In this document: positions 2,876 to 37,997 of the stretch, piece by piece
Numbering within the stretch: position 1 is the stretch's first letter
How the letters are laid out: every line of letters begins with the position of its first letter
DNA from: a virus
Lineage: Duplodnaviria > Caudoviricetes
Virus record (IMG/VR): IMGVR_UViG_3300017748_000027
Coordinates: 1-37,997 of that record
DNA: 37,997 nucleotides
Reading direction: 5' to 3' (one strand)
Notes under the pieces: generated by a model
What the model was told of the DNA's origin: nothing
The model's input: only the letters and a program-made list of their open reading frames with translations
Database searches by the model: none
Made by a program: the position numbers and the translations under genes

Positions 2876-4423
2876 ATGCAAGAATTAAAGTTAGTTAAAA
2901 ACCTGGCTTTTGGCGATTATGCTAGAAGTCAGGTATTAACAGGTGTTGAAAAACTTACTAATGCAGTAGGTTCAACCCTGGGTGCCAGTGGTAAATGTGT
3001 TATATTAGAAGATGGCAATGGCGTACCACAAATTACAAAAGATGGAGTAAGCGTAGCTAATGCTATTACTCTGCAAGATCCTATTGAAAATATTGGAGCA
3101 ACATTAATAAAGCAAGCAGCTCAAAGAACTGTGTCAGATGCTGGTGATGGAACAACTACAGCTACAGTTTTAGCTAAAGCTATATTAGATGAGGCTCAAT
3201 CACACTCTTTATTAGATGATGAAAGAGGCATGAAAGACGGTATTAATAAAGCAGTTACTAAAGTTTTAGAATATATAACTAAAAATTCTAAAAAAGTAAC
3301 TGGTAAAAAAATTAATCAAGTAGCTACTATATCTGCTAACAATGACAAGAAGCTTGGTGATATTATAGGTAAAGCCTTTAAAATGGTTGACGAAACAGGT
3401 ATTGTTATGATGGAAACAAATGAACAGCCTGAAACTGTAGTAGAGTTAATAGAAGGAGTACAGTATGATCAAGCCTTAAAAAATAACCATTTTATTACTA
3501 ATAAAGAAAAAGGAACTGCTGAGTTAGATAATCCACTAGTGCTCGTTGTTGAATCACAAATAACCAACATAAGAAAAATTCAGTCTATTCTTGAGTACGT
3601 AATTAAAAATGGTAAAAGCTTACTTATTATAGCAGACGCTGATCCTCAAGTAGTATCTGCCTTAGCTATGAATAAAATGAAAGGTAATATTAAAGTCAAT
3701 GTAATAGACGCACCGGTATATGGAATAAGCAAAAAAGACATATTAGAAGATTTATGCTCAGTTACTGGAGCTAAACTTATTAATGAAGACTTAGGAGACG
3801 ATATGGATCTTATACAACCTGAATTTTTAGGTTCTTGTATTAAGTCAGTCACTAATCATGAAGAAACTATATTAAGGGTAGATTTATCTGATAAGCCTAA
3901 AGTTAAAGAAACTATAGACTTACTAGAAGATCAAATTAAAAATACTAAAAACCCTAACATAATAATTAGATTAGAAAAGAGATTAGCTAAATTAAATGCT
4001 AAAGTAGCTACAGTAAAAGTAGGTGCTAACTCTGAAGTTGAATTAAAAGAAAAAAGAGATAGAGTAGAAGATGCTATTTGTGCTACAAAAGCCGCTATTA
4101 AACAAGGCATAGTGCCTGGTGGTGGGATTGCTTTACTAAACGCTAGCACGCATTTAAAACCAGATTCAATAGGTGAAGAAGTATTATATCAAGCAATACG
4201 TAAACCTTATGAACTTATATTAAAAAATGCAGGCGTAAAAGAATATGTTGATCCAGATGAACAAGGTAGAGGACTAGACGTGGTTACAGGAAAAACGGTA
4301 GATATGGTAAAAGCCGGAATTATTGATCCTTTACTGGTTACTAAAAGTGCTTTAATTAATGCGGCTTCAGTAGCAACAACTATATTATCAACTGATTGTG
4401 TAATTAATAATATAAGAGCATGA
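2876..4423 (+). CDS. groEL: Phage-encoded chaperonin GroEL (Cpn60)
   Basis: 515 aa; ITKDGVSVA, ATP-binding AGDGTTTATVLA, GIVPGGG, GIIDP; no C-terminal GGM repeats. Confidence 0.97.
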   Translation: MQELKLVKNLAFGDYARSQVLTGVEKLTNAVGSTLGASGKCVILEDGNGVPQITKDGVSVANAITLQDPIENIGATLIKQAAQRTVSDAGDGTTTATVLAKAILDEAQSHSLLDDERGMKDGINKAVTKVLEYITKNSKKVTGKKINQVATISANNDKKLGDIIGKAFKMVDETGIVMMETNEQPETVVELIEGVQYDQALKNNHFITNKEKGTAELDNPLVLVVESQITNIRKIQSILEYVIKNGKSLLIIADADPQVVSALAMNKMKGNIKVNVIDAPVYGISKKDILEDLCSVTGAKLINEDLGDDMDLIQPEFLGSCIKSVTNHEETILRVDLSDKPKVKETIDLLEDQIKNTKNPNIIIRLEKRLAKLNAKVATVKVGANSEVELKEKRDRVEDAICATKAAIKQGIVPGGGIALLNASTHLKPDSIGEEVLYQAIRKPYELILKNAGVKEYVDPDEQGRGLDVVTGKTVDMVKAGIIDPLLVTKSALINAASVATTILSTDCVINNIRA

Positions 4424-13707: not shown

Positions 13708-13909
13708 TATAGGTTCTGACTATAAAAATGATGCTATGCATTATTCTACTGGTCAAGAAGTATACGGTGGACATACTATTAGCGATATTCTTTTTGAAGA
13801 CAATGATCAGTCTTATAATATATTCATTGAAAAAAATAATGAAATATTACCTTGGAAAAAGTTTAATCGTAATATGGCTATATCAGTTGAATACGATTTA
13901 AAATACTAG
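13685..13909 (+). CDS. Hypothetical protein (RKISIGSDYKNDAMHY)
   Basis: Likely GTG start at 13685 within the 13661 ORF; TAG/GTG overlap with next gene. Confidence 0.7.
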   Translation: MKVIRKISIGSDYKNDAMHYSTGQEVYGGHTISDILFEDNDQSYNIFIEKNNEILPWKKFNRNMAISVEYDLKY

Positions 13910-14493
13910 TGAAAAGTTTATATCAATTTATAATAAAGCCTTTTGACGAAAGATATGATAATACAAAGAAGATCGATGATAAAACCCTCATTGTTAACAC
14001 TAGTATTGAAGATCATAAGTTTGTTAGTAAAAAAGCTATTGTCGTTTCTACGCCTGCAGCTTTTAAAACTAAAGTAAAAACAGGTGATATAGTATATGTG
14101 CATCATAATATATTTAGAAGATATTATGATATGAAGGGTGTTGAAAGAAATAGTGGAACATATTTTAAAGATGATCTTTATTTTTGTTCTCCTTTTCAAA
14201 TATATATGTACAATGGCAATAGCCATTTAAATTACTGTTTTGTTAAGCCTATTTTAAATAAAGAAAAATTTAGCATTAATAAAGAGCAACCTAATGTTGG
14301 TATAGTTAAGTATAGCAATAGTTCCTTAGAAGCTCTTAAAATAAAACCTGGAACACTTATTACGTTCACACCTAACTCAGAGTTTGAGTTTATTATAGAA
14401 AGTGAACGACTTTATTGTATGAAATCAAATGATATAGCTTTAATCCATGAATACAAAGGAGACGAGAAAGAATATAATCCGAGCTGGGCGTAA
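13909..14493 (+). CDS. Tandem GroES-like domain protein
   Basis: 194 aa; two repeats of F(I/V)(I)KP...(A/G)IV...(V/I)K.G..(V/I) GroES-like strands, ending LYCMKSNDI. Confidence 0.55.
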   Translation: MKSLYQFIIKPFDERYDNTKKIDDKTLIVNTSIEDHKFVSKKAIVVSTPAAFKTKVKTGDIVYVHHNIFRRYYDMKGVERNSGTYFKDDLYFCSPFQIYMYNGNSHLNYCFVKPILNKEKFSINKEQPNVGIVKYSNSSLEALKIKPGTLITFTPNSEFEFIIESERLYCMKSNDIALIHEYKGDEKEYNPSWA

Positions 14494-14722
14494 GGCTGTA
14501 GACGAGTTAGTTAAAGTAGCAGAAGAGCAAATTATAACTAATGAAGCAGATGATTTAGCTGCTGACAGGTTAAAGAATGCCGCAGCTACTAAAAAGCTGT
14601 GCATTATGGATGCATTTGAAATATTACAACGAATAGAAGAAGAAGAAAATATTTTAAAAGGTTTAGAGAATAAAAAAGAAATTAAGCCATTTAAAGGTTT
14701 TGCAGAAGGGAGAAGTAAATGA
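14447..14722 (+). CDS. Putative terminase small subunit
   Basis: 91-aa helical protein ATGA-coupled immediately upstream of terL; positional inference. Confidence 0.5.
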   Translation: MNTKETRKNIIRAGRKAVDELVKVAEEQIITNEADDLAADRLKNAAATKKLCIMDAFEILQRIEEEENILKGLENKKEIKPFKGFAEGRSK

Positions 14723-16944
14723 TTCACGAACAAACCCTTTGGAAAGAAGTTAAAGACATTGTAAATCCTAAAATATTAGCTAAAAACAATAGGTTTAAAA
14801 AATGGGAGTATGGCTATAACTCTGATTATGATTTTATAGTAATAAGTAAAACTGGAAAAATTGGACAAGTCATTGAAATACAAAATCTCCGCATCGCTTT
14901 ACCAACAACAGATAAATCGTTTAAACGAAGCGAAAACAAAGCGCAACAACGTTGGGAAAAGTTTGAATATCCAAAAGAACTACAAAGAATAAAAACTAGA
15001 TTTGACTGGGAAGAACACTCTGTAACTTTTAAAGAAAAATGGTACGATTATATTGACAATGAATTTACTAGACGAGAGCAAGGATTTTACTTTTATAACA
15101 ATGGTACTCCTACTTACATTACTGGCACTCATTACATGTACCTGCAATGGTCAAAGATTGATGTTGGATCACCAGATTATAGAGAGTCAAACAGACTCTT
15201 CTTTATATTTTGGGAAGCGTGTAAAGCAGATAAAAGGTGTTACGGAATGTGTTACCTTAAAAACAGACGATCTGGATTCTCTTTTATGTCAAGCGCGGAA
15301 CTTGTTAACCAAGCTACAATATCTTCAGACTCAAGATTCGGTATACTTTCCAAGTCTGGAGCAGATGCCAAAAAAATGTTTACAGATAAAGTTGTACCCA
15401 TATCAGTTAACTACCCGTTCTTTTTTAAACCCATTCAAGATGGTATGGACAGGCCGAAAACTGAATTGGCATATCGTGTTCCAGCATCGAAACTTACTAG
15501 AAGAAAGCTTGAGTCTAATGAACAACTCACAGAATTAGAAGGACTTGATACAACTATTGACTGGAAAAATACAGGTGATAACTCTTACGATGGTGAAAAA
15601 CTAAAACTATTAGCTCATGATGAAAGTGGCAAATGGGAAAGACCTGATAATATATTAAACAACTGGAGAGTTACAAAAACTACGCTGCGTCTAGGATCTA
15701 GGATTGTAGGTAAATGTATGATGGGCTCAACTTCAAATGCTTTAGACAAAGGTGGAGACAATTTTAAACACTTATACTACAATTCAGACGTTAAAAAAAG
15801 AAATAAAAACGGACAAACAACTTCTGGACTCTATAGCTTGTTCATACCTATGGAGTGGAACTACGAAGGATTCATCGATACTTATGGATCACCTGTCTTC
15901 GTTACTAGGGAAAATAGAGCTAAAGGAGTTGACGGTTACGAAATTACAACAGGAGTTATTGAGCACTGGAAAAACGAAGTTGAAGGATTAAAGCACGATC
16001 AAGACAGTTTAAACGAATACTATAGGCAGTTTCCAAGATCAGAGGCTCACGCTTTTAGAGATGAAAGCAAACAAGCTCTTTTCAATATAACAAAAATATA
16101 TCAACAAATAGATTATAACGAGGAATTAAACAATAAAGCTAATATAACTCAAGGTAATTTTTCTTGGAATAATGGGATAAAAGATACTACAGTAAGTTTT
16201 ATTCCTAATCAAAATGGTAGATTCTTTGTTAGCTGGGTGCCACCTAATAATTTACAAAACAAAGTAATAATTAAAAATGGAACAAAATATCCTGGTAACG
16301 AGCACATTGGAGCTTTTGGCTGTGACAGTTACGACATTAGCGGTACTGTGGATGGTAAAGGTTCTAAAGGAGCATTACATGGATTAACTAAGTTTTCAAT
16401 GGAAGACGCTCCATTTAATCAGTTCTTTTTAGAATATATAGCAAGACCTCAAACAGCTGAGATATTTTTTGAAGATGTTTTAATGGCGCTTAATTTTTAT
16501 GCAATGCCTATACTTGCAGAGAATAATAAACCTCGTCTATTGTACTATTTAAAAAGAAGAGGATATAGAGGCTTTAGTATTAATAGGCCAGATAAACTTG
16601 CAAATAAATTGTCGGTTACAGAAAGAGAAATAGGTGGTATACCTAATTCAAGTGAAGATATTAAGCAAGCACATGCTGCTGCTATAGAAACTTACATAAA
16701 TGATAATGTAGGTAGAATAAAAGAAGGTTACGGTTCAATGTATTTTCAAAGAACTTTAGAAGACTGGGCTAAATTTAACATAAACAATAGAACAAAGTAT
16801 GATGCTACTATAAGTTCTGGTTTAGCTATAATGGCTTGTAATAAAAACAAATATAGACCTGCACCTAAAAATATTATTAAATCTTTTAATTTAGGTTTTA
16901 AAAGATATAACAACGATGGCAATATTTCTAAAATAATAAAATAA
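14719..16944 (+). CDS. terL: Terminase large subunit
   Basis: 741 aa; Walker A-like LKNRRSGFS, Walker B LLAHDESGK, motif-III-like GSTSN, nuclease GCDSYD and C-terminal YDATISSG; precedes portal. Confidence 0.93.
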   Translation: MIHEQTLWKEVKDIVNPKILAKNNRFKKWEYGYNSDYDFIVISKTGKIGQVIEIQNLRIALPTTDKSFKRSENKAQQRWEKFEYPKELQRIKTRFDWEEHSVTFKEKWYDYIDNEFTRREQGFYFYNNGTPTYITGTHYMYLQWSKIDVGSPDYRESNRLFFIFWEACKADKRCYGMCYLKNRRSGFSFMSSAELVNQATISSDSRFGILSKSGADAKKMFTDKVVPISVNYPFFFKPIQDGMDRPKTELAYRVPASKLTRRKLESNEQLTELEGLDTTIDWKNTGDNSYDGEKLKLLAHDESGKWERPDNILNNWRVTKTTLRLGSRIVGKCMMGSTSNALDKGGDNFKHLYYNSDVKKRNKNGQTTSGLYSLFIPMEWNYEGFIDTYGSPVFVTRENRAKGVDGYEITTGVIEHWKNEVEGLKHDQDSLNEYYRQFPRSEAHAFRDESKQALFNITKIYQQIDYNEELNNKANITQGNFSWNNGIKDTTVSFIPNQNGRFFVSWVPPNNLQNKVIIKNGTKYPGNEHIGAFGCDSYDISGTVDGKGSKGALHGLTKFSMEDAPFNQFFLEYIARPQTAEIFFEDVLMALNFYAMPILAENNKPRLLYYLKRRGYRGFSINRPDKLANKLSVTEREIGGIPNSSEDIKQAHAAAIETYINDNVGRIKEGYGSMYFQRTLEDWAKFNINNRTKYDATISSGLAIMACNKNKYRPAPKNIIKSFNLGFKRYNNDGNISKIIK
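15059..15538 (+). CDS. Candidate overprinted (+1 frame) exported/lipoprotein gene inside terL
   Basis: 170 stop-free codons (15026-15535); ATGs at 15059 and 15101; MVLLLTLLALITCTCNGQ start. Confidence 0.4.
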   Translation: MNLLDESKDFTFITMVLLLTLLALITCTCNGQRLMLDHQIIESQTDSSLYFGKRVKQIKGVTECVTLKTDDLDSLLCQARNLLTKLQYLQTQDSVYFPSLEQMPKKCLQIKLYPYQLTTRSFLNPFKMVWTGRKLNWHIVFQHRNLLEESLSLMNNSQN

Positions 16945-16948
16945 ATAA

Positions 16949-19360
16949 ATGCAAATTTCTTACACAAGTAATAGTTCTTTTCCAGATCAGGTTGTACCAG
17001 CTGAAGAAAAAGCTACTTTAGAGTATGGGCTTGCCGTAGGTAGAGCTATAGAAAGTGAATGGTTTAAAAATTATAGAGGTGGAGTAAATGCTCCTGGTTA
17101 TGCTGTTAATTTTAATGAGTTTCATAATTTAAGATTATACGCTAGAGGTGAACAGCCTGTTCAAAAGTATAAAGATGAACTAGCTATTAATGGTGATTTA
17201 TCATATTTAAACTTAGACTGGAAACCTGTTCCTGTTATTGCAAAATTTGTAGATATTGTTGTTAATGGTATATCTGGTAGAACTTATGAAATAAATGCTT
17301 TTGCTCAAGACCCTGTTTGTTCAAGGCAAAGAACAGATTATGCTACAGGATTAATGACTGACATTGTAGCTAAAGATTATTTAAACAGCGCTCAACAAAT
17401 ATTAGGTGTTAATGCTTTTAATTCTGAAAATCCTGATGCTGCACCTCAAGATAAAGAAGAATTAGCTATACATTTACAAATGGATTTTAAACAGTCTGTT
17501 GAAGTTGCAGAAGAAGAAGCTATTAATTATATTTTAGAAAACAATAAATACGAGTTGACTAGAAGAAGATTAGCTTACGACTTAACTGTTTTAGGTATAG
17601 CTGCTGTTAAAACTACATTTAATCAAGCTGAAGGCGTTACTGTAGATTATGTAGATCCTGCAGCTATGGTATATTCTTACACTGATGATCCTAATTTTGA
17701 AAACTTATATTATGTAGGAGAAGTTAAATCTGTTTCTATACCAGATATTAAAAAACAGTTTCCACAATTAACTGACGAAGAATTAGAAACAATACAAAAA
17801 TACCCAGGTAATCCAGAGTATTTAAGAAACTGGAACGGTAGATATGACGATCTAACTGTACAAGTAGTGTACTTTGAATATAAAACTTACCAAGACCAAG
17901 TCTTTAAAATAAAGAAAAACGCTTTTGGATTAGAAAAAGTATTAGAAAAACCTGACACTTTTAGTCCACCTGAAACTGAAAACTTTGAAGTAATAACTAG
18001 ATCAATAGAAGTGCTATATAGCGGAGCAAAAATACTAGGGCATCCTATGATGCTAGAGTGGAAGCTAGCTAGAAATATGACTAGACCTACTGGTGACACA
18101 GTTAAAGTTAATATGAATTATAATATATGTGCGCCAAGATTATATAAAGGTAGAATTAATTCATTAGTAAAAAGAATAACAGGCTTTGCTGACATGATTC
18201 AGCTTACACATCTTAAAATACAACAAGTACTATCTAGAACAGTTCCTGATGGTGTGTTTTTAGACATGGATGGATTAGCCGAGGTAGATTTAGGTAATGG
18301 TACAAAGTACAACCCAGCCGAAGCTTTAAATATGTATTTCCAAACTGGTAGTATTGTAGGTAGATCGTTAACTCAAGAAGGTGATCCTAATAGAGGTAAA
18401 GTGCCAATACAAGAGTTACAGACTGGAAGCGGCAGTGCAAAAATATCAACCTTAATACAGACTTATCAATATTACTTACAAATGATAAGAGATGTAACCG
18501 GGCTTAATGAAGCAAGGGATGGTAGTACACCAGATAAAAATTCTTTAGTAGGTTTGCAAAAATTAGCAGCTGCTAATAGTAATACAGCTACTAGACACAT
18601 ACTACAAGCTCAATTATTTTTAACAGTAAGAACTTGTGAAAACATATCGCTAAGAGTTGCTGATGCTTTACAATATCCATTAACTAGACAAGCTTTAGAA
18701 AATAGTATATCAGAATATAATGTAGGTACTTTAGATCAATTATCTAAAATAAATATACATGACTTTGGTATATTTTTACAATTAGAACCAGACGAAGAAG
18801 AAAAACAACAGCTTGAACAAAATATTCAAATTGCTTTAAAAACTAACTCTATAACATTAGAAGATGCTATAGATATAAGAAATGTAAAAAATCTAGCTTT
18901 AGCTAATCAAATGTTGAAGTATAGAAGAAAGAAAAAAGCACAGGCAGATCAGCAAGCTGCACAAGCTAATATCCAAGCACAGGCTCAAGCAAATGCTCAA
19001 ACAGCAGAAAAAGCTGCATTAGCTGAAATGCAAAAACAACAAGCGCTAGCAGAAACGCAAGTACAGATAGAACAAGCTAAATCTCAGTTTAATATAAATA
19101 AAATTGAACGAGAGTCTCAAATGAGAAAAGAAGAAATGGAACTTAAGTTTACATATGATATGCAGTTAGCTCAGTTAGATGTAGGTTTCAGAAGAGATAA
19201 AGAAAAACAAATTGAAGATCGTAAAGATCAAAGAACAAGAATATCAGGAACTCAGCAAAGTGAAATGATTAGTCAGAGAAAAAACGATACACCTCCAACT
19301 AATTTCACTGAAACAGAAAATCCTGATGGATTAAACTTAAGTGCATTTAATATGCAATAA
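16949..19360 (+). CDS. Portal protein
   Basis: 803 aa between terL and scaffold/capsid; Q/A-rich C-terminal coiled-coil barrel typical of podovirus portals. Confidence 0.85.
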   Translation: MQISYTSNSSFPDQVVPAEEKATLEYGLAVGRAIESEWFKNYRGGVNAPGYAVNFNEFHNLRLYARGEQPVQKYKDELAINGDLSYLNLDWKPVPVIAKFVDIVVNGISGRTYEINAFAQDPVCSRQRTDYATGLMTDIVAKDYLNSAQQILGVNAFNSENPDAAPQDKEELAIHLQMDFKQSVEVAEEEAINYILENNKYELTRRRLAYDLTVLGIAAVKTTFNQAEGVTVDYVDPAAMVYSYTDDPNFENLYYVGEVKSVSIPDIKKQFPQLTDEELETIQKYPGNPEYLRNWNGRYDDLTVQVVYFEYKTYQDQVFKIKKNAFGLEKVLEKPDTFSPPETENFEVITRSIEVLYSGAKILGHPMMLEWKLARNMTRPTGDTVKVNMNYNICAPRLYKGRINSLVKRITGFADMIQLTHLKIQQVLSRTVPDGVFLDMDGLAEVDLGNGTKYNPAEALNMYFQTGSIVGRSLTQEGDPNRGKVPIQELQTGSGSAKISTLIQTYQYYLQMIRDVTGLNEARDGSTPDKNSLVGLQKLAAANSNTATRHILQAQLFLTVRTCENISLRVADALQYPLTRQALENSISEYNVGTLDQLSKINIHDFGIFLQLEPDEEEKQQLEQNIQIALKTNSITLEDAIDIRNVKNLALANQMLKYRRKKKAQADQQAAQANIQAQAQANAQTAEKAALAEMQKQQALAETQVQIEQAKSQFNINKIERESQMRKEEMELKFTYDMQLAQLDVGFRRDKEKQIEDRKDQRTRISGTQQSEMISQRKNDTPPTNFTETENPDGLNLSAFNMQ

Positions 19361-19386: not shown

Positions 19387-20547
19387 ATGTCAACAACAAA
19401 ACAAGAGCAAGAGGCTTTGCCTTTGAAAATAAAAAAGCCTTCATTAAAAAGGGATAATGATCAAGTGTATAAGCTTGATATGAATAAAAAACCAGAAGAA
19501 AAACAAGAAGAAGATGCCATTCCAGAGCAAAGCGCAGGAAGTTTGGATGAGGATAAACAAACCACAAATGTGGAAAAAGTGGAGGAAAGAGCACCCGAAC
19601 CAAGTATTGAGCCGGTTGCCGAAGAAGAAAAAGAAGAAGTAAGTCCTATAGAAGAAATCACTGTTGAGAAAAAAGAAGAAGTAGTACAGGAAACTTCACA
19701 AGAGCATAAGGAAGAAACACCAACTAAAAAACTTCCAGAAAATATAGAAGCATTGGTAAGCTTTATGGAAGAAACAGGTGGTACTGTTGAAGACTATGCT
19801 AGATTAAATAGAGATTATTCACAGTATAACGAAGATGCTATACTAAATGAATATTATAAAAGAACTAAACCACATTTAAATCAAGAAGAGATTAGCTTCA
19901 TAATGGAAGATAATTTTAAAGTTGAAGAAGATGTGGACGATGAGCGAGAAATAAAGAAAAAGAAACTTGCTTATAAAGAAGAAATTGCTAAAGCCAAAGG
20001 TTTTTTGGAAGAAACAAAGAGCAAATACTACAAAGAAATCAAGTTGAGGTCTAGTGGTACAACTCCGGAACAACAAAAAGCTATGGACTTTTTCAATAGA
20101 TACAACAAAGAACAAGAAAAAGGAGCAAAGAACAGAGAGATATTTATTAATAATTCTAATAAGTTATTCAACGAAGACTTTAAAGGTTTTGAATATTCAG
20201 TTGGAGAAAAAACATTTAGATATAATGTAAATAACCCTAGTGATATTGCTAAAAAACAATCAAATTTAAATAGTTTGTTTCAGAAGTTCTTGAACAAAGA
20301 AGGTGCGATTGGTGATGCCAAAGGTTATCACAAAGCTTTATATACAGCGCAAAATCCTGATAGAATTGCAGCTCATTTTTATGAACAAGGTAAAGCAGAT
20401 GCTATAAGAAATGTTGCTTCTAAATCAAAAAATATTGGTGAAGATGTAAGACCTCAAGCAAATGGTGACATGTTTATAAATGGGTTGCGAGTAAAAGCGA
20501 TTAGCGGTGTAGATAGTTCTAAGTTGAAATTTAAAACAAAAAAATAA
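19387..20547 (+). CDS. Capsid scaffolding/assembly protein
   Basis: 386 aa; Glu-rich disordered N-terminus, helical C-half; between portal and major capsid. Confidence 0.7.
   Translation: MSTTKQEQEALPLKIKKPSLKRDNDQVYKLDMNKKPEEKQEEDAIPEQSAGSLDEDKQTTNVEKVEERAPEPSIEPVAEEEKEEVSPIEEITVEKKEEVVQETSQEHKEETPTKKLPENIEALVSFMEETGGTVEDYARLNRDYSQYNEDAILNEYYKRTKPHLNQEEISFIMEDNFKVEEDVDDEREIKKKKLAYKEEIAKAKGFLEETKSKYYKEIKLRSSGTTPEQQKAMDFFNRYNKEQEKGAKNREIFINNSNKLFNEDFKGFEYSVGEKTFRYNVNNPSDIAKKQSNLNSLFQKFLNKEGAIGDAKGYHKALYTAQNPDRIAAHFYEQGKADAIRNVASKSKNIGEDVRPQANGDMFINGLRVKAISGVDSSKLKFKTKK
19514..19642 (+). CDS. Overprinted (+1 frame) 42-aa basic peptide inside the scaffold gene
   Basis: MPFQSKAQEVWMRINKPQMWKKWRKEHPNQVLSRLPKKKKKK*; resembles the recalled MPFKSKAQ..W...N.P...KKW small phage protein pattern; local shift in scaffold codon usage. 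Confidence 0.7.
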   Translation: MPFQSKAQEVWMRINKPQMWKKWRKEHPNQVLSRLPKKKKKK

Positions 20548-20565: not shown

Positions 20566-22080
20566 ATGGCTTTTGCTACAAGTGGGTCTTTTCCCGCAAG
20601 TTTAGTTCCAGCTCAAACTCGACAAGCTCTTCACACAAACTACTTAACGTTTGATGGAAGTACAGGTAATTTTGCTCAGCAATATTTACCAGAGCTTTAC
20701 GAAGCTGAGGTGGAAAGATATGGAAACAGAACAATTGGTGGTTTCCTAAGAATGGTCGGCGCAGAGATGCCGATGACATCAGATCAAGTAATTTGGTCTG
20801 AACAAAATAGATTACATATTGCATATAAGTCTTGTACTGTTGCTGCTCCAGGTGGGTTAGCTGATGCTGATATTACACTTACTATTGATTTAGCTGTTGC
20901 ACAGCCTGCTGTTGCTGCCGCTGATAGAAGAGGTGCTATCAGACAAGGACAAACAGTATTAATCTCTGACAATGCAACTGGATTAAACGTACAAAAAGGT
21001 TTAGTACAAGCTGTTTCTGGTGCTACTCTTAACGTGTTAAATGTTAAGTTTTATGGTACAGCTACTAACGCTTTACCAGTAACTGCAGGTGGATGTAACG
21101 TATTTGTTTACGGATCAGAGTTTGGTAAAGGTTCTATTGGTATGCAAGGAACAGTTCAACCTTCTTTTCAACAGTATGCTAACAGACCAATGATTCTTAA
21201 AGATAACTTTGAGATTAATGGTTCTGATACTGCTCAAATTGGTTGGGTTGAAGTTGCTACTGAAGACGGTCAGTCAGGTTATCTATGGTATTTAAAAGCT
21301 GAGTCTGAAACAAGACTTAGATTTGAAGATATGTTAGAGATGGCAATGGTTGAAGCAGAAAACATGTATAATGATGGTTATACTGAGGCTGGTAATGCTG
21401 TACAATATCAGTATGGTGGAGCTTCTAACGCTGCATTAACTACTAATATTCAAGGTTCTGAAGGTTTATTCGCTGCTATCGAAGCAAGAGGTAATGTATA
21501 CTCTGGTTTTGCTGGTGCTGCTGCTCCTGGTTCAGGTGCTTTATCTGATTTTGATGAAATACTCAAAAACTTAGATAAGCAAGGTGCTATTGAAGAAAAT
21601 ATGTTATTCTTGTCTAGAGCTACTGCTCTTGACTTTGATGATATGATTGCTGCTGTTAATGGAGCTTATGCTTCTACTGCATCTGCTTCTTTCGGATTAT
21701 TTGAGAATGATGGTGATATGGCATTAAACTTTGGATTTTCAGGATTTAGAAGAGGTTCTTATGACTTCTACAAAACTGATTGGAAATACTTAAATGATGC
21801 TTCATTAAGAGGTCTTGACAAAGAAATCGATGGTGTATTAATACCAGCTGGTACTACTACAGTATATGATCAAATGTTAGGATCAAACATCAGACGTCCT
21901 TTCTTACACGTAAGATATAGAGCTTCTGAAACTGAAGATCGAAGAATGAAGTCTTGGATTACTGGTTCAGTTGGTGGTGCATACACCGACACTCTAGATG
22001 CTATGACTGTAAGTTTCTTATCTGAAAGATGTTTAGTAACTCAAGCTGCTAATAACTTCGTGTTATTTAAAGGAGCTTAA
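20566..22080 (+). CDS. Major capsid protein
   Basis: 504 aa after scaffold; strong codon bias; QQYLPELYEAEVERYGNRT N-terminal region; terminator two genes later. Confidence 0.88.
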   Translation: MAFATSGSFPASLVPAQTRQALHTNYLTFDGSTGNFAQQYLPELYEAEVERYGNRTIGGFLRMVGAEMPMTSDQVIWSEQNRLHIAYKSCTVAAPGGLADADITLTIDLAVAQPAVAAADRRGAIRQGQTVLISDNATGLNVQKGLVQAVSGATLNVLNVKFYGTATNALPVTAGGCNVFVYGSEFGKGSIGMQGTVQPSFQQYANRPMILKDNFEINGSDTAQIGWVEVATEDGQSGYLWYLKAESETRLRFEDMLEMAMVEAENMYNDGYTEAGNAVQYQYGGASNAALTTNIQGSEGLFAAIEARGNVYSGFAGAAAPGSGALSDFDEILKNLDKQGAIEENMLFLSRATALDFDDMIAAVNGAYASTASASFGLFENDGDMALNFGFSGFRRGSYDFYKTDWKYLNDASLRGLDKEIDGVLIPAGTTTVYDQMLGSNIRRPFLHVRYRASETEDRRMKSWITGSVGGAYTDTLDAMTVSFLSERCLVTQAANNFVLFKGA

Positions 22081-31547: not shown

Positions 31548-33248
31548 ATGGCATATCAAATACCAAACATCGCAGGTCTAGCTGCAGCTAGAAATAATAG
31601 AAGAGCTCAAGCTATAAAAGATATGGGAACTATGCTTGCTACTAGACAAAAAGAAAAAAATAAAATAGAAGCAGCAATTGTAAAAGATGCTAATGCTCGT
31701 AATGTAGATTTTTTAAATTATTTTGAAGAACAACCTAAATCTAGTAATCAAGCTTTTAATTCATCTGCAGAAGCATACGTAAGAAAAGCCTCTGCTAATC
31801 AAGAAGTAATGTATAGAAATGCTTTTGGTGCTCAAGGAAGTCCTGAAGCTAGAGCAGCATACAATGCTCAAGTAATGAAAGACAAAAGAAATTTACAGTC
31901 TATAGGTGAATGGATGACTTTAGGTAATGCTGCTAGTGTAGCTATAACAGAGAATCAAGCCGCGGCTGATCAAGAAACATCATTAGGTGCTTTTACTAGA
32001 GGTAATGATATAAATAAACTAAGTTTTCAAAGCGATTTAGCTAATTCAAAATTTACTAATTTTTTACTTAATGATGATGCTAATGGTAATATAAATTTAA
32101 AAGGTTTTTATTCTAGTGATGATTATGAAGGTTATCTGGCTGGCGATGATGAAAAAAAATACAACGAAAGAAATTTAACTGGAGACGTTCAAGCACATCA
32201 ATCTGGTCAAGTTTGGTTTACTCAAATACAAAATGATGACTTACTTCAGAATAAACTAGGTAATATATGGACAAACAAAAATCCAGCTATTGGTTTAAGT
32301 AACTTATTTCAAGAAGAAACTAAATCAAATAAATATTTAAGCGGAGGCAATTGGGTTTATACTAAAGAAAAAGTATATAATCCAACTAAGGTAAAAAGCG
32401 AGTTATTAAATAAGTATTCTAATAGACTTGATACTCAAATAAATGGACAAGGTTTTGATAAAACTTGGGATCAGCTATATAAAGGTGGTTATATAAGAAA
32501 TAATAAAGGAGAGTTTTTAGAAGAAGGAGATATTGCTTGGAACACTGTTAAGCAGATTAAAAATATATCTAATGAGATGTTCATGAAACAATATGGTGAT
32601 TTAACAGGTGATGAGAAAATTACTCAAGAAGATAGAGATTTATTTGTTGATAACATGAAAGACGCTGCTAGGCAAGGGCTAGCTAACTATTTTGCAGAAA
32701 CAATGGCGCCACAAAGTAATCAAGTAATATCAACTCAAACTACTGAAAAATACGAACAAGAAAACAAAAAGACGTATACGCCTGATCAAATTAATAAAAT
32801 GATGATGCATGAAGACGCTTACTTAGCAAATAAAAGAGATGCTAAAGAAGATGTTAAATTAGATAACGCTGCTGATTTGCAAAAAGCTATGGTTAAAAAT
32901 CTTAATGAAAACTCTCATTTAGAAAGCATGGGTAATGTAATATACGCTGATTATAATACAGCTATGGGTATATTAGAAAATACAGGGCAATTAGATGCTT
33001 ATCAAAACAGCATGGACAAAGGTAATATATTTGCTTTAAAAGCTACTTCAACTGTTTCTAAAGGAATTAAGCAACTTCAATATGATCTTTTACCAGACTA
33101 TGGAATTAAAGCTGTAGACATTGAAAATGCTGTTGGAAATGAAAAAGTTATACAAAGATTATTAAACAACGGTATAAACATAGATAGAGCTTCGGTAAAT
33201 TATCTTGAAAGTATGTCACAAAATAACAATCCACTTATAGATGAATGA
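31548..33248 (+). CDS. Internal virion/ejection protein
   Basis: 566 aa, helical; between pilot-like and giant genes. Confidence 0.55.
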   Translation: MAYQIPNIAGLAAARNNRRAQAIKDMGTMLATRQKEKNKIEAAIVKDANARNVDFLNYFEEQPKSSNQAFNSSAEAYVRKASANQEVMYRNAFGAQGSPEARAAYNAQVMKDKRNLQSIGEWMTLGNAASVAITENQAAADQETSLGAFTRGNDINKLSFQSDLANSKFTNFLLNDDANGNINLKGFYSSDDYEGYLAGDDEKKYNERNLTGDVQAHQSGQVWFTQIQNDDLLQNKLGNIWTNKNPAIGLSNLFQEETKSNKYLSGGNWVYTKEKVYNPTKVKSELLNKYSNRLDTQINGQGFDKTWDQLYKGGYIRNNKGEFLEEGDIAWNTVKQIKNISNEMFMKQYGDLTGDEKITQEDRDLFVDNMKDAARQGLANYFAETMAPQSNQVISTQTTEKYEQENKKTYTPDQINKMMMHEDAYLANKRDAKEDVKLDNAADLQKAMVKNLNENSHLESMGNVIYADYNTAMGILENTGQLDAYQNSMDKGNIFALKATSTVSKGIKQLQYDLLPDYGIKAVDIENAVGNEKVIQRLLNNGINIDRASVNYLESMSQNNNPLIDE

Positions 33249-36200
33249 TATTTATTACTACACTAATTCAAAAGGTGAAGTAGTAGAAGCCACTTATAGT
33301 CAAGTAGAAGAAGCGTCAAAACATTTTGGTTACCCTGATGCTCAAACATACATGACTGATAAGGGTATTACTACAGATCCTCCTTCTAAAGAGCAAGAAT
33401 CACCTATGTTTTCTGGAGAAGAAACCAAAGATGCTATTGATAAAGCTCAAGATGAGCAAGAGAAAATACAGCAAGAAAGAGATGAAACCAGAAAAAAAGA
33501 TTTAGATAACCGTATATCTAATGAGAAACCTAAAGTAAATAAAAGTATGTCTCAAATAGTTCGTGAAGCTAAAATGAAAGAGACAACTGAAAAAGCTATA
33601 GAGTTAGACGATGATCACACTTGGATGGATAATGTAGATGATGTTCAGTTTTCTAACTCTGGCAATAATAAAATGTCTGTAATGCTCAACGAAGCTTATC
33701 CAGGTTTTACAAGTAAAGAAGTAACTAAATATAGAACTGATTATGGCCCTGATGGTGCTGTAAATTTACCATATACTGAGCTACAAATAACTGACGATAA
33801 TACTGGAGACGTTAAAACAATAGATCCTAAGTCTAATAGTTTTAAAACAGATATTAGAGGTTTTGTTAATAAACATGGTGGCACAAAGAAATATAAAGCA
33901 GATGAAGAAACATTAAGATTATCTAGTGAAGCTGACGAAGCTACTAATCTTTCTGGTTATCAAAATTCAGAAATACAAAGTATAACTGGAAAACCTAATG
34001 AAGAGTTGTTTAAACCTTATACTGAAATGGAAACAGTTCAAGGTATACCAACTCCAGATGGTAGAATGATTAGTGGAAGTAGAAGAGTAGAGAAAACTAT
34101 TCAACCTTATGAAGCAGAGTTAAAGCAAGCTAAAGATATTCTTGATAGACAAGTAGCAGACATAAACGCTAAGAGATCACCTAGTGATCAAATACCAGCT
34201 GCAACTAGGTTAGATATAGAAAACAAAGCTAAAGACCTTATAGCTGCTGATATGACATATAAAATGCAAAATAACAATTTGCAAGACTATTTAGAAGATT
34301 TAACTGAATCTGAAATTGCCAAACTAAATATTTATACAACAAAAACTAAAGACGCTAAATCTAAAAAAGCAAGTGAAATATTAGCTGTTCAAAAAATAGA
34401 AATGGATAATTTTTTAGATGAAAATAAAAATCCAGATCTAATGCTGGTTAACTATGTTAACTCTACTTTATCAGATCCTACACAAGAATTTTTACCAGAA
34501 GAAGGAGAAAAAACTATTAAGCTTAACAACGGTAAAGTAATAGGCGAAAAATTATATAATGAGTATGTACAAGCAAAGTCTAATTTAGATAACCAATTAG
34601 TTCCCCTTAAAAAACGACAAGACGAAATAAATAAAGTAACAGGTGAAGTTTCTGATTTAAATACTAAAATGGATTTATACGGCAGAGACTACAGTAATAT
34701 GAGTAAGTTTACTTATAACTTTTTAAAAGGTTTTGAGAGTATTGGATCTGGTATATTGTATTATGGTGGAAGACTAGGAAGTGAAGTTATGCAATTAGGA
34801 GGTGGATTAACAGGTTTTGCTGGAGAAGTATTACAAAAAAATCTAACTGATTGGCAAATAAATAGATTTAAAGAAGATCAAGATCGTAGAAGAGTATTAG
34901 CTAAAGACGTTTCATTTGGAGATTTTAAAGATAAAAATGGAGAGTATGATGCTAGTAGATTTGGTAGATTTATAAACCAAGAAGTTAGCACTCAGCTTCC
35001 AATACTAGCTTCAATGGTAGTTACTGGTGGTAGTGGATCTGCCGTGTTACCAGCGTTGACTATTGGCACGTATAGTGCGGGTGAAAGATTAGCAGAATTT
35101 GATGTTAATCAAGCAACTGATCCAAATTATAATCCATCTGCTTTAGAAAAATGGTTTGTAAGTACAGGCTATGGTGCTTTAGACGGCACGTTAGGTACTT
35201 TACCAACTGCTAGAATATTAAGAAATAGTGTTAAAGCTGTAGGCACTTCTGGTACTAGCGGTTTTTTAAGCTTTAGTAAAGAGTTTAAAAACGCTTGGAC
35301 TAATGGAACGTTAAGAAAACATGTTATATATGAACCAGCTATAGACATGGCGGGTGAAGTAGGTACTACGTGGGGTCAAAATGCTTTAGATGGTAGACCT
35401 ATATTAACTAATACTGGTCATACTGCTTTTACTTCTGGTATGTTTAGTGTATTTTTAGGTGGTGGTCCTTTAGTTTATGGACATACTTTAACTGCTTTTA
35501 GTGATCGTAAAAAATGGAAGGAAACTAGAAGCTTAATAGATGATAAAAACAGGCTTGAGGCTAAATTAAGTAATGTTGATGGTCGTACTAAAGTTGGTAA
35601 AGCTTATAAAAATCAAATAACAAGTTTAGAAAAGCAAATTGAAAATAATATTAATACTGTTTCTAATAATGTTAATAATAAACTATCACCAAAATCTTAT
35701 AATGCTTATGTTAATGCTACTAAAAGACAAGAAGAAATAAGATTAGAAGCAGAAGCTATAGTGGACGATCAAACTATTAAAAATAGACAAGACAAACAAG
35801 AGCAATTAAAATATCTTAAAAAAGAGTTTGACGATATACAATATGCTAGAGATTTATGGAGAGATGAAGATGCATTTGGAAATGAATTTAACTTATTAAG
35901 TTCTGGTAATGAACAGCAAAAAGAAAGATACCAAAAAATAAAACAAGAAGCTATTACAAAGTTAAGAGTTGATAAAAATAAAGCTCCAGACTTTCAACCA
36001 GACGCTAAAGATATAAATGCAGCTGCATATGATATATATGTTAGAGAAGAAATACAAGACAGAATAGACCAAGCTAATAAAGCTAGTAACAATTTTAAAA
36101 CTATAGTATTAGAAACAAAAGAAGATGCTATAAATGAAATTAACAGATTGGCTAATGAAGAAATAAGTATAGCTGCCTCTGAAGAAAAAACTACTATACA

Positions 36201-37997
36201 AGATACTAAAACCGTAATAGATAAAATAAATAAAGGATCATTAAACGGTTTTCAAGTTGGTAAAAACAATTACGCTATAATGGAAAACGCTGTAGCTAAT
36301 GAAAAAACCGAAATAACTATACATGAACCTGGTCACCAAGTGTTTGAAGAAATACTTCAAAACAGAGATGCTGATTTTTCTGATATGGCTAGATCTGTTT
36401 TAGAGTGGACTAAAGCAAATAATCCTGCTGTATATAAAAGATTAAGTACTCAAGCTGGTGTTAATTTATTATTAAGTGATAACTTAGCAGATAGAAAAAG
36501 AGGTGCTGAAGAAGTTGTTGTAGAGTTTTTAGAAGAAGTTTCTAAAGAAAGATCATTTAACTTTGATAGAATACAAGACAAAGAATTAGCTGCATACTTT
36601 TCTTATATGGCATCAGACATGATGCAGAAAAACACATCTAATAATTTTGCTTTAAATTTAAAAGGACAAAATGACGCTGTTAGTTTTTTAGTTACTCTAG
36701 CTACTAAAATAAAAAGAGGTGATATAACTCAAAGAGATATACAAGAAGCTAGACAGTCACCTGTTATAAAAGCTATTGAGGAAAAAACCAGTGAGACAGC
36801 TGCTGTGGAATTAGCTGCTAAAATAAAACCAGAAGTTGGATCTATTAAAGAGTCTGTTTCAGAGACACCTGAAGAAAGAAAAATTAGACAAGATAATAGA
36901 AATAAACTTTTAGATAAAATTTATAATGAAAAAGCTTTAGATGAAGATGGCAAGCCTGTTAGCAAGCAAGAGTTTAATGAATTTTTAAATACTCAAGAAG
37001 GTAAAGACTTTGTAGGCGAGGTTTTGTTAATGTCCTATAATGATATATTAGCCTTAGTTAAAGGTGATGAACTTAAAATAGATTTTAATCCAATAATAAA
37101 ACACATAGAAGCTTTTAATCCTCAAAAGAAAGTTACAGAAGGTAAGTTTGATTTAAAAGGATATTTTGGTAGATTTTTAAAAGCTAAAGTTGGTACTGGC
37201 GCAAAGCGAGTAGCTAAATCAGAAGGTCCAAAAGCTGCAACTAGAATAGGTCAACAGCGAGAAGGTGGTAGAGCTTTTGACATAGCAGATACTAGAGGTA
37301 AAGCTGACCAAACAGTTGATTTAAATTTAAGGCAACTAGCAGATATTAAAGAAGGCAGCGACTTATATAACTTTATATTAGATAAAACTAAAAAAGTATT
37401 ATCTACTTTTAAACCTAAAGTAAAAGGTTTAAACGCTGAAGTTGTAGAACTAGCTAAACAACCTACAAACTCTAAAGCTATTGCTCAAGTAAATAAAGCT
37501 TATAAAAGTGTTAGACAACAATTAAATAGTGATTTTGATACTGAAATGTTTAAAGAAGTTAAAAACACTATTAAGAAACCTAACTACAAGTCTTGGCTAG
37601 AAAATAATAAAAAAGCTATACTTAGTTTAGATATAAACACTTTAGTAGCTTTTGAAAGGTTATCTAAGAATAAAATATTTGCTGTTGCTGAGAAAAAAGA
37701 TATGAGCCCTAGCGAAATTGAAGCTGCGTTATCTGTTGGTAGAAAAGCTGATTTAGTTTATATTAACCCTACATCTGGACCTACTTTATATAAAAGATTA
37801 GATCCTTCACCTGAACAAATATCAGAGTTCTTTTTGAAACGTGGTAGAGATAATGCTTTAGCAAAAGCTATAGCTGCAAAGCTAGGTGAAAATGCTACGA
37901 TGCAAGCATTAAAAGGAGAAGTTGGTCAAGATAAAGCAAAGGTAATAGAAATATTTTCTAATAATAATCCAGATCTTAATTGGATCCCATTAGAAAA
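33241..37997 (+). CDS. Giant internal virion/ejection polyvalent protein (partial, >1585 aa; not in ORF track)
   Basis: ATG 33241 overlaps the previous stop (ATGAATGA); frame read open to window end (MNDIYYYTNSKG...WIPLE); Gly-rich hydrophobic segments; HEPGH at 36322-36336. Confidence 0.85.
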   Translation, partial: MNDIYYYTNSKGEVVEATYSQVEEASKHFGYPDAQTYMTDKGITTDPPSKEQESPMFSGEETKDAIDKAQDEQEKIQQERDETRKKDLDNRISNEKPKVNKSMSQIVREAKMKETTEKAIELDDDHTWMDNVDDVQFSNSGNNKMSVMLNEAYPGFTSKEVTKYRTDYGPDGAVNLPYTELQITDDNTGDVKTIDPKSNSFKTDIRGFVNKHGGTKKYKADEETLRLSSEADEATNLSGYQNSEIQSITGKPNEELFKPYTEMETVQGIPTPDGRMISGSRRVEKTIQPYEAELKQAKDILDRQVADINAKRSPSDQIPAATRLDIENKAKDLIAADMTYKMQNNNLQDYLEDLTESEIAKLNIYTTKTKDAKSKKASEILAVQKIEMDNFLDENKNPDLMLVNYVNSTLSDPTQEFLPEEGEKTIKLNNGKVIGEKLYNEYVQAKSNLDNQLVPLKKRQDEINKVTGEVSDLNTKMDLYGRDYSNMSKFTYNFLKGFESIGSGILYYGGRLGSEVMQLGGGLTGFAGEVLQKNLTDWQINRFKEDQDRRRVLAKDVSFGDFKDKNGEYDASRFGRFINQEVSTQLPILASMVVTGGSGSAVLPALTIGTYSAGERLAEFDVNQATDPNYNPSALEKWFVSTGYGALDGTLGTLPTARILRNSVKAVGTSGTSGFLSFSKEFKNAWTNGTLRKHVIYEPAIDMAGEVGTTWGQNALDGRPILTNTGHTAFTSGMFSVFLGGGPLVYGHTLTAFSDRKKWKETRSLIDDKNRLEAKLSNVDGRTKVGKAYKNQITSLEKQIENNINTVSNNVNNKLSPKSYNAYVNATKRQEEIRLEAEAIVDDQTIKNRQDKQEQLKYLKKEFDDIQYARDLWRDEDAFGNEFNLLSSGNEQQKERYQKIKQEAITKLRVDKNKAPDFQPDAKDINAAAYDIYVREEIQDRIDQANKASNNFKTIVLETKEDAINEINRLANEEISIAASEEKTTIQDTKTVIDKINKGSLNGFQVGKNNYAIMENAVANEKTEITIHEPGHQVFEEILQNRDADFSDMARSVLEWTKANNPAVYKRLSTQAGVNLLLSDNLADRKRGAEEVVVEFLEEVSKERSFNFDRIQDKELAAYFSYMASDMMQKNTSNNFALNLKGQNDAVSFLVTLATKIKRGDITQRDIQEARQSPVIKAIEEKTSETAAVELAAKIKPEVGSIKESVSETPEERKIRQDNRNKLLDKIYNEKALDEDGKPVSKQEFNEFLNTQEGKDFVGEVLLMSYNDILALVKGDELKIDFNPIIKHIEAFNPQKKVTEGKFDLKGYFGRFLKAKVGTGAKRVAKSEGPKAATRIGQQREGGRAFDIADTRGKADQTVDLNLRQLADIKEGSDLYNFILDKTKKVLSTFKPKVKGLNAEVVELAKQPTNSKAIAQVNKAYKSVRQQLNSDFDTEMFKEVKNTIKKPNYKSWLENNKKAILSLDINTLVAFERLSKNKIFAVAEKKDMSPSEIEAALSVGRKADLVYINPTSGPTLYKRLDPSPEQISEFFLKRGRDNALAKAIAAKLGENATMQALKGEVGQDKAKVIEIFSNNNPDLNWIPLE

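Follow-up and report, generated by a model that had tools for sequence, protein, structure and literature searches.

The window, i.e. the whole 37,997-nucleotide stretch of DNA analysed here, is a 38 kb virus record that is 63% complete. In its head region, a small gene lies inside a larger one, to which we refer as the host gene. The relevant features are as follows.

14719..16944, + strand: terminase large subunit gene (phrog_6681, E 1.5e-161), given for context
16949..19360, + strand: portal protein gene (phrog_6547, E 1.7e-143), given for context
19387..20547, + strand: host gene of 386 aa, a putative scaffold, located between the portal and major capsid genes; its homologues are labelled 'structural protein' or hypothetical
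19387..19731, + strand: variable acidic N-terminal arm of the host protein (residues 1–115), predicted to be disordered; the cassette corresponds to residues 43–85
19494..19513, + strand: A-rich unstructured leader ahead of the nested ATG, with no Shine-Dalgarno sequence; likely translation-initiation region
19514..19642, + strand: gene for a 42-aa basic peptide (MPF family), nested within the host gene and read in its +1 frame; the peptide is predicted to form a two-helix hairpin with a Lys-rich tail
20566..22080, + strand: major virion structural protein gene, likely the major capsid protein (phrog_13704, E 3.1e-91), given for context
33241..37997, + strand: giant virion-type gene that runs off the end of the contig after more than 1585 aa; in relatives, the cassette is hosted by the gene in this position

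The host protein matches 79 cultured phage records, all at less than 60% identity. The matching phages are those of Flavobacterium, Cellulophaga, Tenacibaculum, and Maribacter, and their gene order is identical. Judging by these matches and by the conserved gene order, the source virus is a marine podovirus-type phage that likely infects a member of Flavobacteriia. No PHROG, Pfam, or NCBIfam family matches the host protein, and a Foldseek search of the PDB with its model returned no fold match (best E 1.7, for a model with a pLDDT of 63). Residues 1–113 of the model are disordered, with pLDDT below 50 over residues 1–85 and 93–113, and the part beyond them is helical. The gene displays scaffold-like properties, namely its position between the portal and capsid genes, its acidity, and a combination of disordered and helical parts. 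Because the protein has neither a family nor a fold match, 'scaffold' is a putative label here that reflects only position and predicted disorder.

The nested ORF is complete (42 codons and a TAA stop), lies wholly inside the 386-aa ORF, and translates exactly as stated in the preliminary description of this DNA. Over the overlap, the host protein carries 15 D/E and four K/R residues and the peptide 14 K/R and two D/E (pI 11.3), which corresponds to net charges of −11 and +12, respectively. The +1 frame is already open 10 codons 5′ of the nested ATG. Within the available part of the source genome, the peptide is present in a single copy, and the portion of the giant gene at 33241–37997 that is present contains no copy of the cassette.

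The use over this span of otherwise uncommon host-frame codons that end in G or C, as described earlier, holds across relatives. In these (53 distinct overlaps, chosen for carrying the ORF), host-frame GC3 falls from 0.32 over the overlap to 0.23 in the core and 0.13 in the flanking arm, and NTA triplets make up 110 of 442 I/L/V codons in the overlaps as opposed to 560 of 811 in the flanks. NTA codons create stops in the +1 frame. When the host gene of a near copy of the window (L001) was re-coded synonymously according to its own codon usage, the +1 frame remained open over 30 codons in about 12% of trials, was both open and supplied with an ATG in 9%, and was open with an M-P-F start in 0.5%. 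An open frame in a single genome is weak evidence, and the case for the gene rests on its relatives.

The nested start has the appearance of the other starts of this phage. The mean A content ahead of the ATG is 0.63 for 66 nested starts, 0.55 for 35 gene starts of the window, and 0.37 for 937 control +1 ATGs, with the A-richness of the leader being in part a by-product of the Lys/Glu arm. The leader in the window has a minimum free energy of −1.4 kcal/mol and lacks a Shine-Dalgarno sequence, as do the other starts. No second nested gene follows the first in the window, and a further ATG-started +1 ORF of at least 20 aa in or just past the arm is found at only 6 of 84 nested loci. A 30-aa +1 ORF at host codon 309 looks like the shadow of a conserved D-x-x-G-Y-H-K-A motif.

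To establish whether the ORF is maintained, we turned to 80 loci collected with the host protein. An ORF of 36–52 aa that starts with MP[FLY] is found in the +1 frame at the same place in 64 of them (the criterion being this start and a length of at least 30 aa); 15 loci have none, and one (L079) is incomplete. The 64 loci encode 49 distinct nested peptides, and 39 aligned ones are 28–98% identical to that of the window. Despite this divergence, M1, P2, and Q8 are invariant and F3 and W23 nearly so.

Two tests involve no selection on the peptide sequence. In the first, we examined the codons of [DN]A[VI] tripeptides of the host protein. The rare Ala codon GCC is used in 57 of 72 such tripeptides in the arm and in 1 of 68 in the core, which bears out the proposal that the D-A-[IV]-x-E motif of the arm is the shadow of the peptide. 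In the second, substitutions were compared between the frames in 23 disjoint pairs drawn from 56 host-found, ORF-carrying loci (at least 70% DNA identity over the overlap and at least 60% over the core; L001 was dropped as a near copy). Substitution rates at the three host codon positions are 0.279/0.172/0.145 in the overlap and 0.182/0.112/0.359 in the core. The +1 frame is better conserved than the host frame in the overlap of 20 of the 23 pairs and in the core of none. Changes silent only in the +1 frame outnumber those silent only in the host frame by 141 to 71 in the overlap, as against 488 to 1229 in the core. In the other three pairs it is the host frame that is favoured, and its freedom from stops shows that the overlap is still subject to host-frame constraint. 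The pairs share ancestry, making the nominal p-values optimistic; a larger set that includes loci found by pattern (36 pairs) gives the same picture. These results show that purifying selection in this region falls chiefly on the +1 frame, in support of the idea of a hidden gene, and the nested ORF is almost certainly a real gene, judging from sequence comparison. Parts of the span are also present in metatranscriptome contigs (X15, X16, X20), from which neither strand nor translation can be read.

Used alone, the peptide of the window finds one homologue, no PHROG, and no Pfam family, and tblastn against cultured phages returns chance-level rows only. A profile of the nested peptides, in contrast, reveals a very large family: 901 matches among 1327 short candidate proteins, 1224 longer proteins, and 4360 clusters at 50% identity (E ≤ 0.001). 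The profile recovers free-standing proteins with E-values down to 3.6e-14, so that the stand-alone MPFKS-type homologues mentioned in the preliminary description do exist. The window peptide fits the M-P-F..S..Q..P..W pattern of the family; M1, P2, S5, Q8, and P17 are invariant in the alignment that contains it (A4). Five of five cultured phage types examined (gp48 of the Streptomyces phage FlowerPower, 023Pt_psg01, S-CBS2, P-RSP2, and C75C1) carry a free-standing member whose −1 frame is closed, and 33 of 34 free copies at pattern-found loci have stops in the host-equivalent frame. The members of 34–40 aa in S-CBS2 (GU936714.1:34225), P-RSP2 (HQ332139.1:7034, minus strand), and C75C1 (OQ984151.1:34579) are unannotated.

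The module also heads larger proteins. It starts at residues 1–3 in 113 of the 120 longer proteins among the matches listed, and nine of 12 that were scanned carry a known family, the fusion partners being MuF, InPase, LigD phosphoesterase, and NUDIX domains (P0151, P0168, P0183, P0221, and P0154 are proteins of this kind). Furthermore, a family variant with a short insertion occurs at 21 chromosomal-looking loci (within L258–L289), mostly of soil Acidobacteriaceae and with mixed neighbours. Owing to these chromosomal copies, the family cannot be regarded solely as a component of virions. Three related Acidobacteriaceae loci lie directly before Ku and uracil-DNA glycosylase genes, and two are near SRAP/ligase genes. 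These neighbours were not used as support for a function, since they concern 5 of the 21 loci, of which three are one lineage, and the rest are mixed.

Distant relatives of the family belong to PHROG 1375. A search of a viral fold library with the peptide model yielded uncharacterised homologues only and led to the Mycobacterium phage Barnyard, whose gp9, like gp10 of Adjutor, is a member of PHROG 1375. Eight of the 39 nested members match phrog_1375 directly (best E 0.0002), the window peptide not being one of them. Profile–profile comparison of the family with this branch gives 95.5%, and both Barnyard gp9 and Adjutor gp10 match the family profile, the former at 24.3 bits (shuffled sequences reach at most 10.8). 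Patience gp10, at 5.6 bits, is within the range of its own shuffles; it is 70% identical to Barnyard gp9 and one of 486 records related to it, which makes its link to the family an indirect one through PHROG 1375 relatives. The branch (Patience gp10, Barnyard gp9, Adjutor gp10, and cluster B gp~75) shares with the family an F-[KR]-S-x-x-Q..W..A..W..T..L-P pattern, a strongly basic composition, a size of 46–78 aa, and often a location between portal and head genes. It differs in being distant and free-standing and in having an N-terminal extension in place of M-P. It gives the family a name without explaining its function.

Other candidate identities fared less well. The nearest named cluster by language-model features is DUF3008 (PF11450), with a similarity of 0.85–0.86 and 14–37% of its members carrying the family. 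None of the peptides scanned has a Pfam match to it, so it remains a lead from feature similarity only, and the term DUF3008 was not found in the literature searched. Patience/Adjutor gp4, a split-hexamer stabiliser described in PMC11965321, is likewise a small basic capsid accessory protein, and no profile match connects the family to it or to Barnyard gp3; it is a different gene. PMC11965321 and PMC7150772 deal with accessory proteins other than the MPF family. Our literature search, which extended to neither subscription papers nor bioRxiv supplements, found no paper on the family or on the overlap.

A DNA pattern scan for the peptide produced 120 loci. In 55, the peptide lies in the host gene described above, in 10 it is inside ORFs of more than 1000 aa, and seven are open through a short locus; the remainder consists of 34 free copies, 10 N-terminal modules, two copies that overlap the end of a small gene, and two that are cut. 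This third arrangement, in which a small gene of 110–130 aa shares its acidic C-terminal end with the peptide, is seen at L134:2206-2589 and L198:215-613, and also in L235.

The giant genes show that nesting is not tied to one host. None of six more distant homologues of the host gene contains a nested copy, and in five of these six genomes (G006, G007, G010, elemoF, and ctfjg026) a single copy resides in a giant gene instead. G006, G007, and G010 belong to the broad phage family of the window (about 70% identity in the terminase and 46% in the portal); their head-region gene is without the ORF, and the sole copy is in a gene of 2191–2813 aa. Giant structural genes likewise harbour the cassette, unannotated, in elemoF 6-3D, a cultured phage of Flavobacterium, and in the isolate ctfjg026. 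In elemoF 6-3D, it is in the +1 frame of the gene of a 3694-aa structural protein (NC_055853.1:52379-52507, L228:1501-1629). The nested copy is carried by 68 elemo phage records, in which only the host 'structural protein' is annotated over it. Nested copies also occur in genes of 2043 and 2672 aa in G008 (60–64% GC) and G009, which have no protein match to the window within the stretches fetched. Contigs with no nested copy were searched for a relocated one, and none was found in G001–G005, G011, G012, or the Maribacter phage Panino; G001–G005 are fragments (18–82% complete), for which this absence proves little.

The cassette likely moves between hosts as a unit. Loci L053 and L059 are 95% identical upstream of it and 97% identical in the core, as opposed to 59% across the initial 90 bases of the cassette itself; one break point immediately follows the ATG-CCG-TT start, and the other lies some 30 codons further on. 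Among 120 pairs whose cores share 80% identity or more, 19 have peptides that are less than 50% identical. Conversely, peptides of the window type that are 86–89% identical are found on cores just 54–58% identical, and the elemoF cassette in the giant gene encodes a peptide 89% identical to that of the head-gene cassette of L048, with the DNA likeness confined to the cassette and the flanks unrelated. Subtype exchange is frequent and yet not free, because subtype labels still cluster on the host tree (27 changes versus 50.5 when shuffled). The cassette is also lost. Decayed remnants remain in situ in ORF-less lineages (L023, L030, L077), and on a tree of the host core, the six rows with no ORF correspond to five changes, at least four of which are forced by well-supported branches (the tree comes from a quick search, and the subtype labels are regex-based).

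Considering that (i) the family is far wider than the overlap and (ii) distant host homologues lack the ORF, the peptide frame appears to predate the host frame here, and the acidic segment of the host looks like a derived shadow of the peptide. The phylogenetic criterion in PMC8227390 treats the widely distributed frame of an overlap as ancestral. As described there, overprinted viral genes resemble this locus in internal +1 dual coding and in unequal selection between the frames, and differ from it in that the new frame is narrowly distributed and usually without remote homologues. Here the inner frame has 4360 clusters and free copies, and it is the nested peptide that would be ancestral and the acidic host segment new. 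The original notion that the peptide had been overprinted on a scaffold gene is therefore not supported. An origin of the overlap from a cassette is likely.

A second precedent is provided by embedded spanins such as Rz/Rz1 of phage lambda, in which a larger phage gene wholly encloses a small one read in its +1 frame; besides this embedded arrangement, overlapped and separated spanin pairs exist (PMC6139136). Rz and Rz1 are, however, fixed functional partners, and the survey in PMC6139136 found no spanin family that mixes the embedded with the overlapped or separated arrangement. The MPF family, unlike spanins, is embedded in unrelated hosts, free, fused, and exchanged as a cassette. An identity as an Rz1-like outer subunit was rejected on inspection of the sequence: the peptide has no Cys, no lipoprotein signal, and no hydrophobic or membrane stretch.

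As regards function, the model of the peptide is a two-helix hairpin (residues 6–15 and 17–26, pLDDT 84) with a Lys-rich tail. No DNA-binding fold match was obtained for it: Foldseek against the PDB gave nothing under E 4, the best hit of a wide structural search had a Z score of 2.2, and PDB sequence searches with two profiles produced chance matches only. A predicted complex of the capsid protein, the host core, and the peptide scored 0.00, which is uninformative either way. Conservation of the core motif across phages of several bacterial phyla would suggest a universal ligand, and the charge and aromatic residues would point to nucleic acid. Gene neighbourhoods are mostly late or head genes, with the cluster B mycobacteriophages, where the gene lies outside the structural arm, as an exception. 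Table S1 of PMC4324244 counts Patience gp10 among the particle proteins on the basis of one stringent spectrum, and since this is a single spectrum, the virion association is weak. MuF is a head component, and InPase fusions are likely packaged in virions, according to PMC5512222. We tentatively propose, at somewhat less than even confidence, that the product is a nucleic-acid-binding accessory protein of the late or virion class. The suggestion that it is a DNA-condensing core peptide is plausible. Within the head operon of Patience, genes 10–12 (L225:6962-7804) encode three consecutive small and very basic proteins. Each of them is reported in particles, with 30 stringent spectra for gp11 and 33 for gp12.

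There is next to no chance that the +1 frame is just the shadow of a conserved host motif and no second gene exists. Synonymous shuffling of one genome does leave a 30-codon frame open in about 12% of trials, but the substitution rhythm tracks the +1 frame, the GCC bias is all but confined to the arm, and nearly all free copies, cultured and pattern-found, have stops where the host frame would be. A programmed frameshift that would join the N-terminus of the host protein to the peptide, in place of a separate protein, is highly improbable. It would find some support in the A-rich runs before the ATG and the 10 open codons upstream of it in the window; against it, the ATG is kept in all aligned nested copies (a partly circular argument, as these were selected for MP, which the GCC test was not), and the upstream open length varies from 0 to 17 codons in most nested copies. 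Moreover, the module normally begins its protein, and its position at residues 1–3 in most of the longer proteins listed is the reason why a true start is favoured over entry by frameshifting. Specific pairing of the peptide with the acidic arm, which would be neutralised at linked stoichiometry, was the function first suggested and is very unlikely to be correct. The opposite charges, the common mRNA, and the retention of the ORF at 64 of 80 loci speak for such a partnership, but complementary charge is an automatic consequence of reading one base out of step, and this cassette is also found free and in unrelated giant genes and is swapped between hosts that are 95–97% identical. The ORF has, in addition, been repeatedly lost: of the 79 complete loci, 15 are without it although their host gene is intact.

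Two further explanations accept the gene and assign it a different role. The peptide may be an effector aimed at the host cell, produced late or entering together with the DNA, that either engages host machinery, for instance the ribosome or RNA polymerase, or counteracts a defence, in which case subtype swapping would reflect an arms race. This is unlikely but worth entertaining in view of the divergent peptides on near-identical cores, the repeated loss of the nested ORF, the fusions to effector-type domains, the copies in bacterial chromosomes, and the number of Patience gp10 spectra, which is greater in infected cells (four at 30 min and two at 2.5 h, Table S1 of PMC4324244) than in particles. 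Conservation of the core motif across phages of Bacteroidota, cyanobacteria, and Actinomycetota nevertheless suits a universal ligand such as DNA better, these data show no positive selection within a subtype, and no host-factor family was matched in Pfam or the PDB. ArfA, in particular, is absent among the Pfam matches of 20 peptides (E ≤ 10) and the PDB matches of two profiles, in searches whose HMMER filters drop weak matches. Alternatively, the module could be a tag for head packaging or capsid docking, with free peptides occupying the site and fusions bringing cargo domains into the head. Its location at the extreme N-terminus and the nature of its fusion partners fit such a tag, which we consider distinctly unlikely all the same, as it would have to be recognised by the unrelated capsids of phages from three phyla and as neither the N-terminal extension of the mycobacteriophage branch nor the chromosomal copies in non-phage neighbourhoods agree with it.

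Combining these findings, we propose that the 129 bases are likely a gene cassette that existed beforehand and was inserted in frame into a disordered linker, and that translation of the nested peptide likely starts at its own ATG on late mRNA. The +1 frame is the main target of selection in the overlap, and the peptide belongs to a very large family whose members are free, serve as N-terminal modules, or are nested in at least two kinds of host gene. Under the genetic code, Lys-rich codons read one base back give Glu and Lys, and a version of the gene freed of −1 stops would therefore pass as an acidic linker. Such a dual-coding version could then enter late genes by recombination wherever a linker tolerates it, and an A-rich Lys/Glu stretch there would provide the context of a start. 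In host genes that are nearly identical, cassettes of one subtype have taken the place of those of another; the head gene and giant genes have a subtype in common, and loss leaves a decayed frame in situ. The product would be a basic two-helix hairpin with conserved aromatics and non-specific DNA binding, either packaged in the head or active at packaging or shortly after ejection, and it would be an accessory and not an essential protein; these last attributes we hold somewhat short of evenly likely. Taken as a whole, a nested cassette translated from its own ATG on late mRNA into a small nucleic-acid-binding late or virion product is probable. In its broadest form, this proposal is of a portable dual-coding cassette, in which an ancient gene cleared of −1 stops moves in an allele-like manner between linkers of unrelated virion genes and encodes a widespread DNA-associated core protein; its chances we consider about even.

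If this explanation is correct, overlapping genes can arise by gene capture and not by de novo overprinting, and a very large family is hidden from annotation. The locus would be a clean natural case of an overlap whose inner gene is old and mobile between hosts, outside the standard overprinting model. Annotation misses this family of thousands of clusters when its members are nested, as in the 68 elemo records, and often when they are free (three of the five cultured phage types examined), and a 'conserved motif' within a disordered linker of a phage protein can in fact be the shadow of a hidden gene. The proposal is directly testable in cultured phages, namely in the Flavobacterium elemo phages for the nested form and with FlowerPower gp48 and Patience gp10 for the free form.

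Several minor observations concern the loci surveyed. Four of them (L052, L065, L114, and L143) have a second Lys-rich +1 ORF of about 25–40 aa, with a common motif, after the first nested ORF. In elemoF, a 10-codon look-alike of the start lies 396 bases upstream (L228:1105) and is possibly the start of a duplicated and decayed cassette. The window also contains a 515-aa chaperonin-like gene (2876–4423), GroEL-like by look, and a GroES-like gene (13909–14493, phrog_13932), both of which have homologues in G006 and G007.
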